Positions 7,767-27,539 of a DNA stretch of 64,000 nt are shown here, piece after piece; position 1 is the first letter of the stretch; the number at the start of each line of letters is the position of its first letter. Both the position numbers and the translations under genes were made by a program. Below the pieces are notes generated by a model. That model was given only the letters and a program-made list of their open reading frames with translations. It was not told the DNA's origin and did no database searches. The DNA comes from Polyangiaceae bacterium (lineage in GTDB: Bacteria; Myxococcota_A; Polyangia; Polyangiales; Polyangiaceae): contig DATJXW010000083.1 of NCBI GenBank assembly GCA_035499895.1, positions 10,793 to 74,792 of the forward strand, given 5' to 3'.

Positions 7767-7782
<16 letters not shown>
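5599..7782 (+). CDS. Secreted protein with MYXO-CTERM-like C-terminal sorting tail
   Basis: N-terminal signal peptide. The C-terminus CYCALPGASGDSKNTWLAGLVLAGFCLRRLARRKG has Cys, a Gly/Ser stretch, a TM helix and an Arg cluster. The N-terminal part is possibly CBM9/DOMON-like (weak). Confidence 0.7.
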
Positions 7783-10445
<2,663 letters not shown>

Positions 10446-10495
10446 GGCCTAGCTCAAGAAAGGGTATTCTATAAGCTCGGACGGGCCAGGAACTA

Positions 10496-10572
10496 GGGGG
10501 TGCCCGCAGGGCCCCCCGGATCAATAGCTGGGGGTGCCCGCAGGGCCCCCCGGATCAATAGCTGGGGGTGCC
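10496..10572. repeat. 34-bp perfect tandem duplication (2 copies plus a 9-nt partial third copy) in a divergent promoter region
   Basis: The unit GGGGGTGCCCGCAGGGCCCCCCGGATCAATAGCT occurs at 10496-10529 and 10530-10563, then GGGGGTGCC. Confidence 0.9.
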
Positions 10573-10620
10573 GGGAGGGAGCCCGCTTAGCGCGGAAATG
10601 CTGTAGCTTTCTCGATCAGC

Positions 10621-11661
10621 ATGTCCGGCCGAGTCCGCCTGGGTGAGCTTCTCGTCAGCGCCAACATCATCACCCGCGAGCAGCTCGACGCCATCCTCGC
10701 CCTGCAGCAGGAGGACGGCCGGCGCCTCGGCAAACTCCTGGTCGAGCGGGGACTCGTGACGGAAACGCAGCTCACCCAAATCCTGAGTCAGCAGCTCAGC
10801 GTCCCGTGGGTCTCGCTCTACCACATCGATTTCTCGCGCCAGCTCCTCGACCTCGTGCCGGAAGAGCTCGCCGAGCAACACTGCCTCATCCCCATCTTCG
10901 TACGGCGGGTGCGCGGCCTCGGCGACACGCTCTACATCGCGATGGACGACCCGACGAACGAGGCGGCCGTCGCGGCCATCGGGCAATACTCCGCGCTGCC
11001 GGTGCGCACCATGATCGCGCCGCCGTCGGACATCCGCGCCGCGATCCGCGCTTACTACTCGACCGGCGGCGACGAGGGCGAGATGCTCGGCGACGACGAC
11101 GTCGCGCACGCGCCGTCGCTCAAGCCGAGCGCGCCGAGCCCCGCGCCCGCGCCGGCCGCCGAGGCGGTACCGCGCGCGCCGTACGCGCCGAAGTTCACGC
11201 CCATCGAAGTGCAGGCGGTGCGCATCACGCCGAACCCGCCACAGGTCGAGCCGTCGTCGTTACCGCCGAGCGAGCTCGACTCGCTGCCGCCCGACAGCTC
11301 GCCCACGATCGAAGCGCGCGAAGTCTCGATGCCCGCTCCGGCGCGGCGCAACCGGCGCATGGTCACCTTGACCTTGCTCGACGGAACCCGCGTGAATTTG
11401 CCCGCGCGGAGCTCGCGGCCGCCGAAAGAAGGCGACCCCGAACCGAAGCCGAAAAAGCGCGATCCGGACGAATCGGGCGGCGCGCTCACGGCTCGCGATC
11501 TCGTCGCGGCGCTCCGCGCCGTCGTCCACGGCGCCGACGTGAGCGACGTCTTCGGCGACCAAGTGCGCTGGGAACCGCTCTTCGCCGCGCTCCTCGAAGT
11601 GCTCCTCAAAAAGCACCTCATCGCCGACTGGGAATTCGTCGAAGAGTTCCGGAAGATCTGA
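10621..11661 (+). CDS. MshEN/GspE_N (T2SSE N-terminal) domain protein, candidate c-di-GMP receptor
   Basis: The N-terminus carries two 24-residue RLGxxLVxxGLVxxxxLxxxLxxQ-type motifs separated by 5 residues. No ATPase domain follows; there is a Pro-rich linker and a small C-terminal domain. Confidence 0.8.
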   Translation: MSGRVRLGELLVSANIITREQLDAILALQQEDGRRLGKLLVERGLVTETQLTQILSQQLSVPWVSLYHIDFSRQLLDLVPEELAEQHCLIPIFVRRVRGLGDTLYIAMDDPTNEAAVAAIGQYSALPVRTMIAPPSDIRAAIRAYYSTGGDEGEMLGDDDVAHAPSLKPSAPSPAPAPAAEAVPRAPYAPKFTPIEVQAVRITPNPPQVEPSSLPPSELDSLPPDSSPTIEAREVSMPAPARRNRRMVTLTLLDGTRVNLPARSSRPPKEGDPEPKPKKRDPDESGGALTARDLVAALRAVVHGADVSDVFGDQVRWEPLFAALLEVLLKKHLIADWEFVEEFRKI

Positions 11662-11673
11662 GCCGGCGCCGTT

Positions 11674-11784
11674 CGAAGTCGCTGCCCACCCCGCGCGTGC
11701 TCGCCGGCTCCGCCGTCTGCGCGCGCGCCGCCGCCTCCCCGATGTCGTGCTCGCCGCCGGCTGCGCGCGCCATGGGAGGGGCCG
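11674..11784. repeat. About 110-bp GC-rich intergenic repeat, copy 1 (copy 2 at 27430..27539)
   Basis: About 90% identical by eye to 27430-27539. Shared blocks are CTGCCCACCCCGCGC ... CCTCCCCGATGTCGTGCTCGCC ... GGCTGCGCGCGCCATGGGAGGGGCCG. Confidence 0.85.
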
Positions 11785-11826
11785 GCACCAACACGGCGAG
11801 GCAGATTCGCGCTACACTACCGGAGC

Positions 11827-12756
11827 GTGTATCTGCGTTCGATCCACATCGAGAACTTTCGTTGCTTACGCGACGTCGACTTGGAGTTCGAGCCGCTCAC
11901 CGTGCTCGTCGGGCCGAACGGTGCCGGGAAGAGCAGCGTGCTCGACGTTCTCCAACCTCAGGTCTCGTTCGCGCCACGCGACGCCTGGCGTCAAGATCGC
12001 GCGGTCAGCTTCAAGCGCACCGGTATTCTGCACGATGCGACGCCGTTCCAGCACGAGTGCAGCGTTGGGGGGTCCACTCCAACCGCGACCTGGAATTTTC
12101 AGCGGTTGCAACTGTCGCCGCGTGCGTTGCGAAGCGAGCAGACGCTCCAGGAACAGCTTGTACTCGCCAGTGATGGCTCCAACCTCAACAACGTTCTCTC
12201 GACGCTGCCGAGGACGGTCCGGAACGAAATCGCCGCGCGGCTGGAAGAGCTCGTCCCTCTCTACAGCGACGTGGACCTCAAGCCGACGGATGGCGGCAGG
12301 CAGCGACTAGTATTTCGAGATCGGTGGGCCGAAGGGATCTGGCACGACGCGCAAGAGGTCTCGGACGGAACGATGGTAGCGGTTGCGTTTCTCGCGCTCA
12401 CGCACCTAGCGTATCCGCCCGATATCCTCGCCATTGAAGACCCCGAGCACTCGCTGCATCCGTTCCTACTCGGCGAGCTCATCGCGCTGCTCCGTCGTCT
12501 CACTGCAGGTGAACTCGGCCGCAAGGCCGTGCAGGTCATCCTGACGACGCATTCCGCGGAACTGCTCGATTTCGTCGACCCGCGAGAGGTCCGCTTCCTA
12601 TCGCGTGAGATGACGGACGGCTCAACGGTCGTCCGCCGCGCGCCTATTGAAAGTGAGCAGTGGAAAGCCGCGTACGAAACGTACGAGAGGTCGCTCGGTG
12701 AGATTTGGCTTTCGGGCGGGTTGGGCGGCGTGCCCAACGTGCCGACTCACCATTGA
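11827..12756 (+). CDS. ABC/AAA_21-type (OLD/RecF-like) ATPase
   Basis: N-terminus IHIENFRCLRDVDLEFEPLTVLVGPNGAGKSS (Walker A) and Walker B/D-loop DILAIEDPEHSLHP. GC is lower than the flanks. GTG start. Confidence 0.8.
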   Translation: MYLRSIHIENFRCLRDVDLEFEPLTVLVGPNGAGKSSVLDVLQPQVSFAPRDAWRQDRAVSFKRTGILHDATPFQHECSVGGSTPTATWNFQRLQLSPRALRSEQTLQEQLVLASDGSNLNNVLSTLPRTVRNEIAARLEELVPLYSDVDLKPTDGGRQRLVFRDRWAEGIWHDAQEVSDGTMVAVAFLALTHLAYPPDILAIEDPEHSLHPFLLGELIALLRRLTAGELGRKAVQVILTTHSAELLDFVDPREVRFLSREMTDGSTVVRRAPIESEQWKAAYETYERSLGEIWLSGGLGGVPNVPTHH

Positions 12757-12766
12757 GTTCTGTCCC

Positions 12767-13402
12767 GTGAGGGTGGTGGTTTACGCGGAGGGGCCGGGCG
12801 ATCTCGGCTCCAAATCGGCACTCGTGCCCGGCAGCTTGATTCCCGCGGGTTCGCTTGGTCCCGCTCATTGTCTCGTCTCACGGGCACTTGCAGGCATCGA
12901 CGTAGAGTTCATGACGGGCTTGCACGTGTTCGGCCGTCCGCCACGCGGTGGTGCGCTTCTACATCGGAGGACGGTACTTCGTATGCTCGCCTGGCCTGCC
13001 CCTGACCTGAGCCCGGACCTTGCGGTAGTTCTCGTCGACCGAGATGGAGATGCAGCTCGTCGAACGCTGCTGCAGCGCATCATCGAGGAGCGCGGCGCCA
13101 TGCATCCACCAACGATTGTCGGCGTCGCCCAGGAAGAGTTCGAGTCGTGGCTCATCGCGGATCCGAAGGCGGCGTCGCAGGTATCAGGTTCGATCGTCGA
13201 GGTTCCACGGGCACCCGACAACCTGATGCCAGGCGAAGCAAAGCGGACTCTCGCCGATTGGACCGCAAACGCTGGCGATAGCTTCATCGCGAGGCGACTG
13301 ATCGCGGAATCGATGGACCTCGAGGTTGCCGCCAACCGAAGCAACTCACTTCGAGCCTTTCTTGCCGACCTGCGTCGTTTCGTGATCGCTTCCGCTCGCT
13401 AA
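12767..13402 (+). CDS. DUF4276-like / Toprim-like partner of the ATPase
   Basis: The GTG lies 11 nt after the upstream stop. It has acidic motifs in Toprim order: VVVYAEG, VLVDRDGD, QEEFESWLIAD. Confidence 0.6.
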   Translation: MRVVVYAEGPGDLGSKSALVPGSLIPAGSLGPAHCLVSRALAGIDVEFMTGLHVFGRPPRGGALLHRRTVLRMLAWPAPDLSPDLAVVLVDRDGDAARRTLLQRIIEERGAMHPPTIVGVAQEEFESWLIADPKAASQVSGSIVEVPRAPDNLMPGEAKRTLADWTANAGDSFIARRLIAESMDLEVAANRSNSLRAFLADLRRFVIASAR

Positions 13403-14886
13403 CGACCGAGCCGCTCGGCGCGTTCGATCGCGACCCAGGGTGAGAGTCGCTCACCGAGCGCTCCGGCTTCCGCCGACGCGCCGGCGCGGCCGGTTTCGAG
13501 GTGCGCGAGCACGGCGGCGGCGGCGACGAGGCGGTCGTCGCCGGGATCGGGGAGCTCGGTCGTGAGCTCGGCCGCGCGGCGCTCGACGAACCCGGTGTCG
13601 TACGCGCCCGCGGCGACTTCGGGCGTCGCGAGGAGCCGCTCGAGAAACGCGAGGTTCGTCGCGATGCCGACGACGGCGGACTCGCCGAGCGCGCGCCGGA
13701 GCCGCGCGAGCGCGCGTTCGCGGGTCGGCGCCCACACGGAGAGCTTCGCGAGGAGCGGGTCGTAGTGCGGGCTCACCGTCGCGCCGGCGTAAACACCGCT
13801 GTCCACGCGCACGCCCGGCCCCGCCGCTTCGACGAGGTGCTCGATGCCGCCCGGACTCGGCACGAAGCCGCGCGCCGGATCTTCGGCGCAGAGGCGCGCC
13901 TCGATCGCGGCGCCGCGCGCGCTCGGTTCGAGCGTGAGCGGCTCGCCCGCGGCGACGCGGAGCATCTCGTGCACGAGGTCGGTGCCCGTCACGAGCTCCG
14001 TCACCGGATGCTCGACCTGCAGGCGCGTGTTCATCTCGAGGAAGTAGAAGCTGCCGCCGCGGTCGAGCAAAAACTCGAACGTGCCCGCCGAGTGGTAACC
14101 GATCGAGCTCGCGCCTTTCACGGCGACGGCGCAGAGGGCTTCGCGCGTCGTCGCGTCGAGCGCGGGACACGGCGTCTCCTCCACGATTTTCTGGTGCCGC
14201 CGCTGGAGCGAACAGTCGCGCTCGAAGAGGTGCACGAGCCGGCCGTCGCGATCGCCGAGTACTTGAACCTCGACGTGCCGCGGCTCGACGAGCGCCTTCT
14301 CGATGTAGACCTCGCCGCTGCCGAAGGCTTTTTCGGCTTCGCTCCGCGTGCGCTCGAGCGCGCCCGCGAGCTCCTCCTCGCGCGCGACGAGGCGCATGCC
14401 CTTGCCGCCGCCGCCGTCGGTTGCCTTGACCATCACCGGGTAACCGACGCGCGCCGCCGTCGCGCGCGCCTCCTCGAGCGTTCCGGCATTGCCGCCCGGG
14501 ACGATCGGCACGCCCGCCGCCGCCATCGCGGCGCGCGCTCGCTGCTTCGAGCCCATCGCGCGGATCGCGCTTGCCGGCGGCCCCACGAACGTGACGCCGC
14601 GCGCCTCGGCGAGCTCCGCGAACTCGGGGTTCTCGGACAAGAAGCCGTAACCCGGATGCAACGCCTCCGCTCCCGAGCGCCGCGCCGCCTCGACGAGCCG
14701 CTCGGCGTCGAGGTACGCGCGCGGATCGGCGCCGAGCGCGACCGCCTCGTCCGCGTGCCGCACGTGGAGCGACGCGCGATCGGCGTCCGTGTACACGGCG
14801 ACGCTTTCGACGCCGAGCTCGCGCAGCGTGCGCATCACGCGCACCGCGATCTCGCCCCGGTTCGCGACGAGCACCTTCTTGAACAT
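13399..14886 (-). CDS. accC: Biotin carboxylase (ATP-grasp), stand-alone
   Basis: MFKKVLVANRGEIAVRVMRTLRELG, with the ATP-grasp and biotin-carboxylase C domains colinear. There is no BCCP or carboxyltransferase nearby. The ATG at 14886 was chosen over the longer ORF. Confidence 0.85.
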   Translation of the reverse strand: MFKKVLVANRGEIAVRVMRTLRELGVESVAVYTDADRASLHVRHADEAVALGADPRAYLDAERLVEAARRSGAEALHPGYGFLSENPEFAELAEARGVTFVGPPASAIRAMGSKQRARAAMAAAGVPIVPGGNAGTLEEARATAARVGYPVMVKATDGGGGKGMRLVAREEELAGALERTRSEAEKAFGSGEVYIEKALVEPRHVEVQVLGDRDGRLVHLFERDCSLQRRHQKIVEETPCPALDATTREALCAVAVKGASSIGYHSAGTFEFLLDRGGSFYFLEMNTRLQVEHPVTELVTGTDLVHEMLRVAAGEPLTLEPSARGAAIEARLCAEDPARGFVPSPGGIEHLVEAAGPGVRVDSGVYAGATVSPHYDPLLAKLSVWAPTRERALARLRRALGESAVVGIATNLAFLERLLATPEVAAGAYDTGFVERRAAELTTELPDPGDDRLVAAAAVLAHLETGRAGASAEAGALGERLSPWVAIERAERLGR

Positions 14887-15099: not shown

Positions 15100-16473
15100 G
15101 TGAGCGGGGCCGAAGTCGTTACCGTTGCCGAACTCGACCGCCGGCTCCGCCGCGCCGCTGAAGCGGCCACCGGGACATTTTGGGTCGAGGGCGAGGTCAC
15201 GTCGCTGAAACAGGCGGCGAGCGGTCACGCGTACTTTTGTCTGAAGGACGAGCGCGAGGACGCCGTCATCGATTGCGTCATGTACCGCTTCGACGCGCAG
15301 CGCGCGAAGAAGCACTTGGTCGAGGGCACGCGCCTGCAGCTCTGGGGACGCGCGACCGTGTGGGCGCCGCGCGGCCGCTTGCAGCTCGTCGGGAACTTCG
15401 CGCGGCCGGCGGGCAAGGGCGCGCTGCTCGAGGCGCTCGAGGCGCTCAAGCAGCGGCTCGCGAACGAAGGTTTGTTCGCGCCGGAGAAGAAGCGCCCGCT
15501 GCCGCGCGATCCGCGCGTCGTCGGCGTGGTGACGAGCGCGCACGGCGCCGCGTTCCACGACATCCGCACGGTCGCGTTTCGGCGCGGCCGCGTGCGGCTC
15601 GTGCTCGCTCCCGCGCAGGTGCAAGGCGACGGCGCGCCGGAGAGCATCGTCGGCGCCCTCGATTTGCTCGAGCGTTATCCCGGGCTCGACGTGGCGATCG
15701 TCGGTCGCGGCGGCGGATCCGGCGAGGATTTGCAGGCGTTCAACGACGAACGCGTGGTCCGGCGCGTGGCGCGCTTCGGCGTGCCCGTCGTGAGCGCCGT
15801 CGGCCACGAGATCGACGTGACGTTGACGGACCTCGCCGCGGACGTGCGAGCGGCCACCCCGTCGCAAGCGGCCGAGCTCGTCGTCCCGGACGGCCGCGCG
15901 CGTCACGAAGCGCTCGCCCGTCAAAAGCTCGCGCTCCTGCGCGCCCAGCGCTCGCGGCTCGAGCTCGCCCGCGCCCGGCTCTCGCACCTGCGCGCGGAGC
16001 TCGGCGATCCGCGCTTCGTCTTGATTCAACGGCAGCAGGACCTCGACGAGCTCCGCGAACGGCTCCGCCGTCGCTTCGAACGTCAGCTGCAGGTGCGCCG
16101 CGCCCGCACGGCGTCGCTCGAGCGCCGCCTCGCGAGCCGGCATCCGCAAAACGTGATCGGCCGCGCCCGCACCGAGCTCGGGCCGCTCGCCGTGCGACTC
16201 GAGGCCGCCGCGGCGCGCAAACTCGAGCGCCTGCGCGCCGAGCTCGCGGAGCGAGCGGGTCGGCTGGACGCGCTGTCGCCGCTCACGGTGCTCGCGCGCG
16301 GTTACGCGATCGCGACCAGGGCGGACGGTCGCGCCGTGCGGAGCGCGCTCGAAGTGACGCCCGGCGAGGACGTTGCCGTTCGGCTCGGCCGCGGCGAGTT
16401 CGCGGCACGCGTCACCGCGGTGCGCGACTCGGCCGCACCGAGCGCGAACCCCCAAAAACCGGCGGAATCGTGA
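15100..16473 (+). CDS. xseA: Exodeoxyribonuclease VII large subunit
   Basis: It has an OB-fold N-terminus (FWVEGEVTSLKQAASGHAYFCLKD), the catalytic region (VVTSAHGAAFHDI, GRGGGSGEDL) and a coiled-coil C-terminus. The start is GTG at 15100 or 15082. Confidence 0.85.
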   Translation: MSGAEVVTVAELDRRLRRAAEAATGTFWVEGEVTSLKQAASGHAYFCLKDEREDAVIDCVMYRFDAQRAKKHLVEGTRLQLWGRATVWAPRGRLQLVGNFARPAGKGALLEALEALKQRLANEGLFAPEKKRPLPRDPRVVGVVTSAHGAAFHDIRTVAFRRGRVRLVLAPAQVQGDGAPESIVGALDLLERYPGLDVAIVGRGGGSGEDLQAFNDERVVRRVARFGVPVVSAVGHEIDVTLTDLAADVRAATPSQAAELVVPDGRARHEALARQKLALLRAQRSRLELARARLSHLRAELGDPRFVLIQRQQDLDELRERLRRRFERQLQVRRARTASLERRLASRHPQNVIGRARTELGPLAVRLEAAAARKLERLRAELAERAGRLDALSPLTVLARGYAIATRADGRAVRSALEVTPGEDVAVRLGRGEFAARVTAVRDSAAPSANPQKPAES

Positions 16474-27429: not shown

Positions 27430-27539
27430 CGAAGCTGCCCACCCCGCGCCATGCTCGGCGGCTCCGCCGCCTGCGCGTGCCGCCGCCGCCTCCCCGATGT
27501 CGTGCTCGCCTGCGGCTGCGCGCGCCATGGGAGGGGCCG
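27430..27539. repeat. About 110-bp GC-rich intergenic repeat, copy 2
   Basis: See 11674..11784. It sits in the same position relative to the genes: about 11-13 nt after a + strand stop and immediately 5' of the next + strand gene. Confidence 0.85.

Follow-up and report, generated by a model that had tools for sequence, protein, structure and literature searches.

A solitary, predicted HEC-01-type ATPase and Toprim nuclease gene pair inserted between two housekeeping genes of a Polyangiaceae bacterium

Two adjacent genes of low guanine-plus-cytosine content (GC) interrupt a GC-rich stretch of a Polyangiaceae genome, and the question they raise is whether they form an imported defence module and, if so, of which kind. 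The DNA comes from Polyangiaceae bacterium assembly GCA_035499895.1 (contig DATJXW010000083.1, positions 10,793–74,792 of the forward strand); the whole analysed stretch of 64,000 nucleotides (nt) is termed the window, and all coordinates below refer to it. The first gene (11827–12756, plus strand, GTG start) encodes a compact ATP-binding cassette (ABC) ATPase of 309 amino acids (aa), and the second (12767–13402, plus strand, GTG start at 12767, TAA at 13400–13402) a DUF4276 Toprim-like protein of 211 aa, called protein 2 below. A preliminary description, made from the DNA letters alone, had read the pair as an ABC ATPase with a Toprim-like partner in the style of OLD, PARIS and Gabija, and had proposed a candidate PARIS/AbiL-class defence module: the general design was upheld by family scans and conserved motifs, while the class assignment had to be replaced. 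The pair is likely a solitary HEC-01-type cassette, i.e., an ATPase-gated Toprim nuclease that serves to ward off phages or other mobile DNA.

Both reading frames are intact. The GTG at 12767 was chosen as the start of protein 2 because full-length homologues of 210–211 aa align from its residue 1 with 58–60% identity, in agreement with the length of about 210 aa estimated before; in the public collection, automatic gene calling has kept only the last 139 aa of this protein. The spacer between the genes (12757–12766, plus strand) measures 10 nt and not 11 nt as previously counted. At the right insertion edge the pair runs convergently into accC, and the overlap of the two stops at 13399–13402 was confirmed: the accC CTA (13399–13401, TAG on the minus strand) has two bases in common with the TAA of the DUF4276 gene. 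On the left, a unique leader of 42 nt with a GC of 0.64 (11785–11826, plus strand) precedes the ATPase start. The low-GC character of the two-gene island was also evident, with a GC of 0.61–0.64 over 11800–13400 (about 62% for the pair) against 0.69–0.76 in the flanks. The deficit falls mainly on third codon positions, where the GC (GC3) is 0.75 in the ATPase gene and 0.66 in the DUF4276 gene compared to 0.88–0.92 in six neighbour genes; the pair has a foreign codon usage.

The segment at about 11670–13399 was acquired horizontally as a clean insertion between two housekeeping genes, the upstream MshEN-domain gene and accC, because these genes adjoin each other in relatives and the pair was not found in 30 genomes of the same genus. 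The MshEN-domain gene has orthologues in 28 of these 30 genomes. At least nine of them, the three closest (77–79% identity) among these, have it as the direct convergent neighbour of accC with aligned ends only 6–137 nt apart and with accC aligning to its last residue; the corresponding distance in the window is 1.74 kb. Protein queries detected the DUF4276 gene in none of the 30, so that the comparison suggested by the preliminary description showed an empty site in at least nine genomes and a pair outside the syntenic core. Among 16 other genomes of the same order, a single one (G037) carries it, with 40 and 44% identity, the same gene order and an ATPase of 304 aa, in a low-GC pocket (0.60–0.62 against 0.67–0.73) amid unrelated non-defence genes, among others those encoding a TonB receptor, a GTPase, and proteins with PDZ and vWA domains. 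Neither a target-site duplication nor meaningful direct or inverted repeats were found at the flanks (the best being 10 nt, or 20 nt at 80% identity), and no integrase or transposase was present near the pair. The contigs obtained with reads from three wetland metagenome runs were all short and of low depth, and no listed piece bridges either junction, which speaks neither for nor against the assembly. In three same-genus genomes (G016:C33, G018:C129 and G004:C14; loci L028–L030) accC was absent from the 8 kb that lie downstream of the MshEN gene and the synteny was broken; an insertion hotspot at the MshEN–accC junction was considered and rejected, the distant accC in these three genomes being a matter of rearrangement.

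HEC-01 stands for Hma-embedded candidate 01 in PADLOC-DB v2, and the models of this family gave the best matches to both proteins. The ATPase scored highest with HEC-01A PDLC04182 (2.5e-42), and eight HEC-01A models reached 1e-30 or better, each matching in two stretches, aa 1–43 and about aa 94–300; protein 2 scored highest with HEC-01B PDLC04196 (1.8e-10 over aa 85–206). The Pfam profiles named in the preliminary description were all matched as well: AAA_21 (9.9e-26) and AAA_15 (2.9e-24) by the ATPase, and DUF4276 (1.1e-8; 36 bits against a cut-off of 30.2) by protein 2, of which only the C-terminal 60% aligns to HEC-01B and to Pfam DUF4276. A true PARIS (AriA/AriB) or AbiL (RloA/RloB) system would follow the same two-polypeptide logic of ATPase plus Toprim, and the ATPase does produce weaker PADLOC matches to AriA (7e-27), mad3 (4e-22), AbiLi (7.9e-20) and GajA; however, the HEC-01A models surpass AriA by 15 orders of magnitude, and protein 2, whose only Pfam family is DUF4276, gave no match in PADLOC or Pfam to AriB, DUF4435 or RloB at E ≤ 1, nor to mad4. 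Its PADLOC matches consisted of HEC-01 models plus one marginal PDC-M25B at E 0.018, and the NCBIfam MAD3 equivalog reached 76.3 bits on the ATPase against a cut-off of 420. With no AriB/DUF4435 or RloB model matching protein 2, and with HEC-01A and HEC-01B as the top-scoring models, the PARIS/AbiL alternative is contradicted by the family scans and is extremely improbable. Judged by profile scores, of which PADLOC's coverage thresholds form no part, the pair is assigned to the HEC-01-type split OLD-family modules (the HEC-01/MAD3–MAD4 kind), and not to PARIS, AbiL, Gabija or MADS.

The motifs listed in the preliminary description were all found in place, and those of the ATPase (all on the plus strand) make up a complete ABC set. 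The Walker A motif GPNGAGKSS (aa 29–37; 11911–11937) has G29, N31, G34 and K35 invariant in 52 sequences of the compact clade, the Walker B/D-loop DILAIEDPEHSLHP (aa 199–212; 12421–12462) has H211 and P212 invariant in the same 52, and the ABC signature-like motif SDG (aa 179–181; 12361–12369) is at least 90% conserved; the H-loop TTHS (aa 240–243; 12544–12555) was located in motif alignments of compact and canonical ATPases. Six residues (I203, E204, P206, E207, H211 and P212) are invariant across four compact and six canonical sequences. The AlphaFold model had a predicted local distance difference test score (pLDDT) of 95.2 and was matched by Foldseek, with an E of about 1e-13 and a probability of 1.00, to Septu/retron PtuA, Thermus OLD 6p74 and Rad50. 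Walker A, signature, Walker B, H-loop and ABC fold are thus all present, as expected for an ABC ATPase of the OLD/PtuA/Rad50 class, and the protein ends at aa 309 without a Toprim domain. The most variable part is a shortened insert directly after the Walker A helix (aa 46–90; 11962–12096), presumed to be a sensor surface, with a column entropy of 3.0–3.5 bits compared to 1.4–2.5 elsewhere. In an alignment of both forms, canonical relatives of 380–400 aa had about 65–90 extra residues at this very place. A C-terminal W294 and a Gly-rich tail are conserved in the compact clade.

In the predicted fold of protein 2 (pLDDT 95.6), helices alternate with four strands and the C-terminal part that comes next is helical; of the residues typical of the Toprim superfamily, both the glutamate behind strand 1 and the DxD behind strand 3 are present. 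The glutamate E8 (12788–12790, plus strand, as are the following sites) in the motif YAEG directly follows strand 1 (residues 2–7 in the model) and is invariant in 84 sequences. Within VLVDRDGD, the DxD element D91-R-D93 (13037–13045) stands directly after strand 3 (85–91 in the model), with D91 invariant and D93 at least 90% conserved in the same 84. The acidic cluster E124-F-E126-S-W128...D132 after strand 4 (13136–13162; motif EEFESWLIAD) has E126 and W128 invariant and E124 and D132 conserved at 90% or more; in the C-terminal helical domain, K159 (13241–13243) is conserved to the same degree. The acidic Toprim-type site of protein 2, whose lack would have spoken against the earlier reading, is therefore conserved. 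In their order, E124 and E126 match E119 and E121 of MAD4, in which K164 adjoins the metal pocket (PMC13662399); K159 would be the equivalent of this lysine, as judged by order rather than by superposition. Payne et al. (10.1101/2024.01.29.577857) and the Menshen study (PMC12065111) assigned DUF4276/HEC-01B as Toprim with an OLD-like metal site. A sequence-profile search of PDB with the DUF4276 alignment returned nothing at E ≤ 10.

A profile search yielded about 100 relatives of protein 2 (204–256 aa), and a scan of one genome per species over 185,579 species located 55 loci in Myxococcota, Planctomycetota, Leptolyngbyaceae cyanobacteria and a few other groups. In 41 of 41 complete loci a compact-ATPase homologue of 297–321 aa (median 306) stands before the DUF4276 gene on the same strand, with a gap of 0–19 nt (median 7), and in all 41 the GC of the pair is lower than that of its flanks (median −5.6 points). 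The exhaustive ATPase search gave about 80 compact representatives at 50% identity and then a score gap, beyond which came 380–400-aa relatives aligning in two stretches. Across the loci, the pairwise identities of the two proteins correlated with r = 0.88, a value that 0 of 999 Mantel permutations attained; the two genes are hence passed on together, though shared ancestry adds to the figure. When the pair was concatenated for a quick maximum-likelihood tree, the phylum labels were clustered (5 changes compared to 17.8 for shuffled labels), with a few Planctomycetota rows inside myxobacterial groups and the cyanobacteria forming a single group. Even within families the occurrence is limited, with profile matches in 10 of 61 genomes of the family around Archangium gephyra and in 5 of 61 of the family around Leptolyngbya PCC 7375. 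The compact clade is patchy across Myxococcota, Planctomycetota and Leptolyngbyaceae, solitary, and characterised by the shortened insert.

Three copies contain an in-frame stop or a frame split: the DUF4276 relatives G104:C209:14520–15089, G154:C360:321–962 and G064:C114:720–1365 have an in-frame TGA or are divided between two frames, which suggests that they are pseudogenes in some lineages. The same fate, an inert passenger or decaying remnant with no current function, might be considered for the window copy, which stands near G037 in the tree on a long terminal branch (1.53 changes per site) and for which no sigma-70-like promoter was found in 11500–13700. It is very unlikely, however, given that both frames are open and full length, that all invariant and nearly invariant residues of both families are present and that both AlphaFold models are confident. 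The same promoter and terminator scan gave one terminator-like hairpin, which is the chance level, and an Rfam search of 11500–13600 gave no match.

What weighs against a defence role is the genomic surrounding: no association with a defence island was seen either in the window or at 19 related loci, an absence which the preliminary description had itself held to count against a defence module. Among 114 open reading frames flanking these 19 loci, no PADLOC family occurred in more than one at E ≤ 1e-8; the PADLOC matches were to generic kinase or helicase domains, and Pfam identified the neighbours as ordinary signalling and metabolic genes. No relatives were found in IMG/VR or in the phage and plasmid collections. 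The defence role is proposed by homology. The sole PADLOC-matching neighbour in the window is a Ser/Thr kinase-STAND-TPR gene (7767–10445, minus strand), syntenic across the genus with 76–92% identity, which matched PD-T4-6 (up to 3.8e-90) and mad6 by its kinase domain alone; this match looks generic and gives no sign of a defence island.

A solitary pair that never occurs in a defence island would also be in line with genome maintenance or DNA repair instead of immunity, i.e., with a Rad50/SbcC- or RecF-type ATPase and its nuclease partner. The ATPase fold matches Rad50 too, and the pair is syntenic across species in some Archangiaceae and in Leptolyngbyaceae, where its neighbours are xseA and recA. 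In the Leptolyngbyaceae loci L065, L071, L072, L074, L075, L083 and L094 (each at about 8900–11600), a convergent xseA, encoding the exonuclease VII large subunit, follows the pair, with recA next after it in at least two; in the window, xseA (15100–16473) lies 1.7 kb downstream of the pair and can be counted on the side of repair. However, this proximity concerns two independent lineages only and was noticed after the fact: it may be a coincidence, and the neighbourhood of xseA and recA was dropped as evidence of a functional link. Further, the pair is patchy even in those two families, with some copies pseudogenised, it was not found in the 30 same-genus genomes, it is of foreign composition in 41 of 41 loci, and its hypervariable segment is typical of sensors, all of which make a repair function unlikely. 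Equally doubtful is the wider proposal that the compact clade is a distinct minimal split-OLD system which avoids defence islands, occupies fixed chromosomal sites (beside xseA/recA in Leptolyngbyaceae) and acts in DNA repair or genome surveillance besides, or instead of, phage defence.

The preliminary description knew of no experimental characterisation of the DUF4276 version, but such data exist. HEC-01 has been tested twice, once without a phenotype, by Payne et al. (bioRxiv 10.1101/2024.01.29.577857), and once in a 2026 study, in which one representative gave Escherichia coli protection from one or more of T7, T5 and T4 (PMC12881386). The structure of the MAD3–MAD4 (ATPase–DUF4276) complex was solved in 2026 as a 2:2 heterotetramer that cleaves DNA and in which the ATPase is active only within the complex (PMC13662399). 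MAD4 alone is insoluble and is stabilised by MAD3 (PMC13662399), which, together with the tight coupling of a minimal two-gene unit, the Pfam label of AAA_21 (putative AbiEii/type IV toxin–antitoxin ATPase) and the one HEC-01 test without phenotype, could point to a selfish addiction-like cassette: a toxic nuclease restrained by the ATPase and kept because its loss is costly, with no useful immunity. Such a cassette is nevertheless improbable, since frequent loss and pseudogenes indicate that loss of the pair is tolerated, no plasmid or phage copies were found, and one HEC-01 representative did protect.

For the preferred reading as an ATPase-gated nuclease, the following scheme may be drawn from the MAD3–MAD4 analogy. 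The HEC-01A-like ATPase would be co-translated with the HEC-01B-like DUF4276 Toprim nuclease and would probably dimerise head to head around two nucleotides, this dimer serving as the scaffold and gate for two Toprim subunits. In MAD3, the residues of the hydrophobic core at the MAD4 interface are C-terminal (PMC13662399), and by analogy we infer that the conserved W294 and Gly-rich tail of the compact ATPase may contact protein 2. The trigger is likely sensed by the surface of the short hypervariable insert that follows the Walker A helix. Binding of Mg2+ and cleavage of nucleic acid would take place in the acidic pocket formed by E8, D91, D93, E124 and E126, close to K159, the substrate being either DNA, as for MAD3–MAD4, or tRNA, as for PARIS. 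The likely role of such a complex is nuclease-based protection from phages or from other mobile DNA.

A GC-rich dispersed repeat of about 100 nt (11681–11784) marks the insert on its left edge, and a second copy of this repeat is located at 27430–27539 (92% identity over 104 nt). It was present in 1–12 copies in 17 of the 30 same-genus genomes at 74–88% identity, one of them having as many as 12 copies of equal score, and was ruled out as a part of the cassette because it is a genus-wide dispersed element. Its ends are partly complementary (GCCCACCCC ... GGGAGGGGC); it had no Rfam match, and its fold was no more stable than that of shuffled sequence (z 0.08). It looks like a REP/MITE-like (repetitive extragenic palindromic/miniature inverted-repeat transposable element) dispersed repeat.

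The system type is already catalogued as HEC-01, and the locus is a real member but no new kind of system; it leaves the knowledge of HEC-01-type systems unchanged. What sets it apart is the compact clade together with a clean empty site in relatives, a modest local novelty; it is a well-documented example from a candidate defence family that is catalogued but little understood. In the ATPase of the compact clade most of the presumed trigger-sensing insert is missing, but no part evolves faster than the 45 residues that are left of it. At about 520 residues for both proteins, the pair is among the smallest ATPase–Toprim pairs and is therefore convenient for structural and biochemical work on the gating of Toprim nucleases by ABC ATPases.

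Compared to the known systems, the pair shares with HEC-01 the key arrangement of an adjacent same-strand ABC ATPase gene (AAA_21/AAA_15) followed by a DUF4276 Toprim-like gene, here after 10 nt. It differs in the size of the ATPase, 309 aa against 363–464 positions in the ten best HEC-01A-type profiles (nine HEC-01A and one labelled HEC-01B), with about 65–90 residues of the insert after Walker A missing, and in being solitary and not embedded in Hma, restriction–modification or bacteriophage exclusion (BREX) loci, albeit such embedding was the context of the HEC-01 discovery and is not strictly defining. The eight-gene methylation-associated system MADS of Pseudomonas aeruginosa contrasts with the pair, which stands alone: there were no other mad genes near it, the sole mad6 match being a generic kinase domain. 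With PARIS it has in common an ATPase of the ABC type plus a Toprim effector as separate proteins, the ATPase being thought to be the sensor; the PARIS paper places MADS3-4 and AbiL with the ABC-ATPase/Toprim systems. In contrast, OLD proteins of class 1 and 2 and Gabija GajA combine ATPase and Toprim in one polypeptide, whereas here they are split, and the place of the GajB helicase, the partner of GajA in Gabija, is taken by no helicase here, the neighbours being the MshEN gene and accC.
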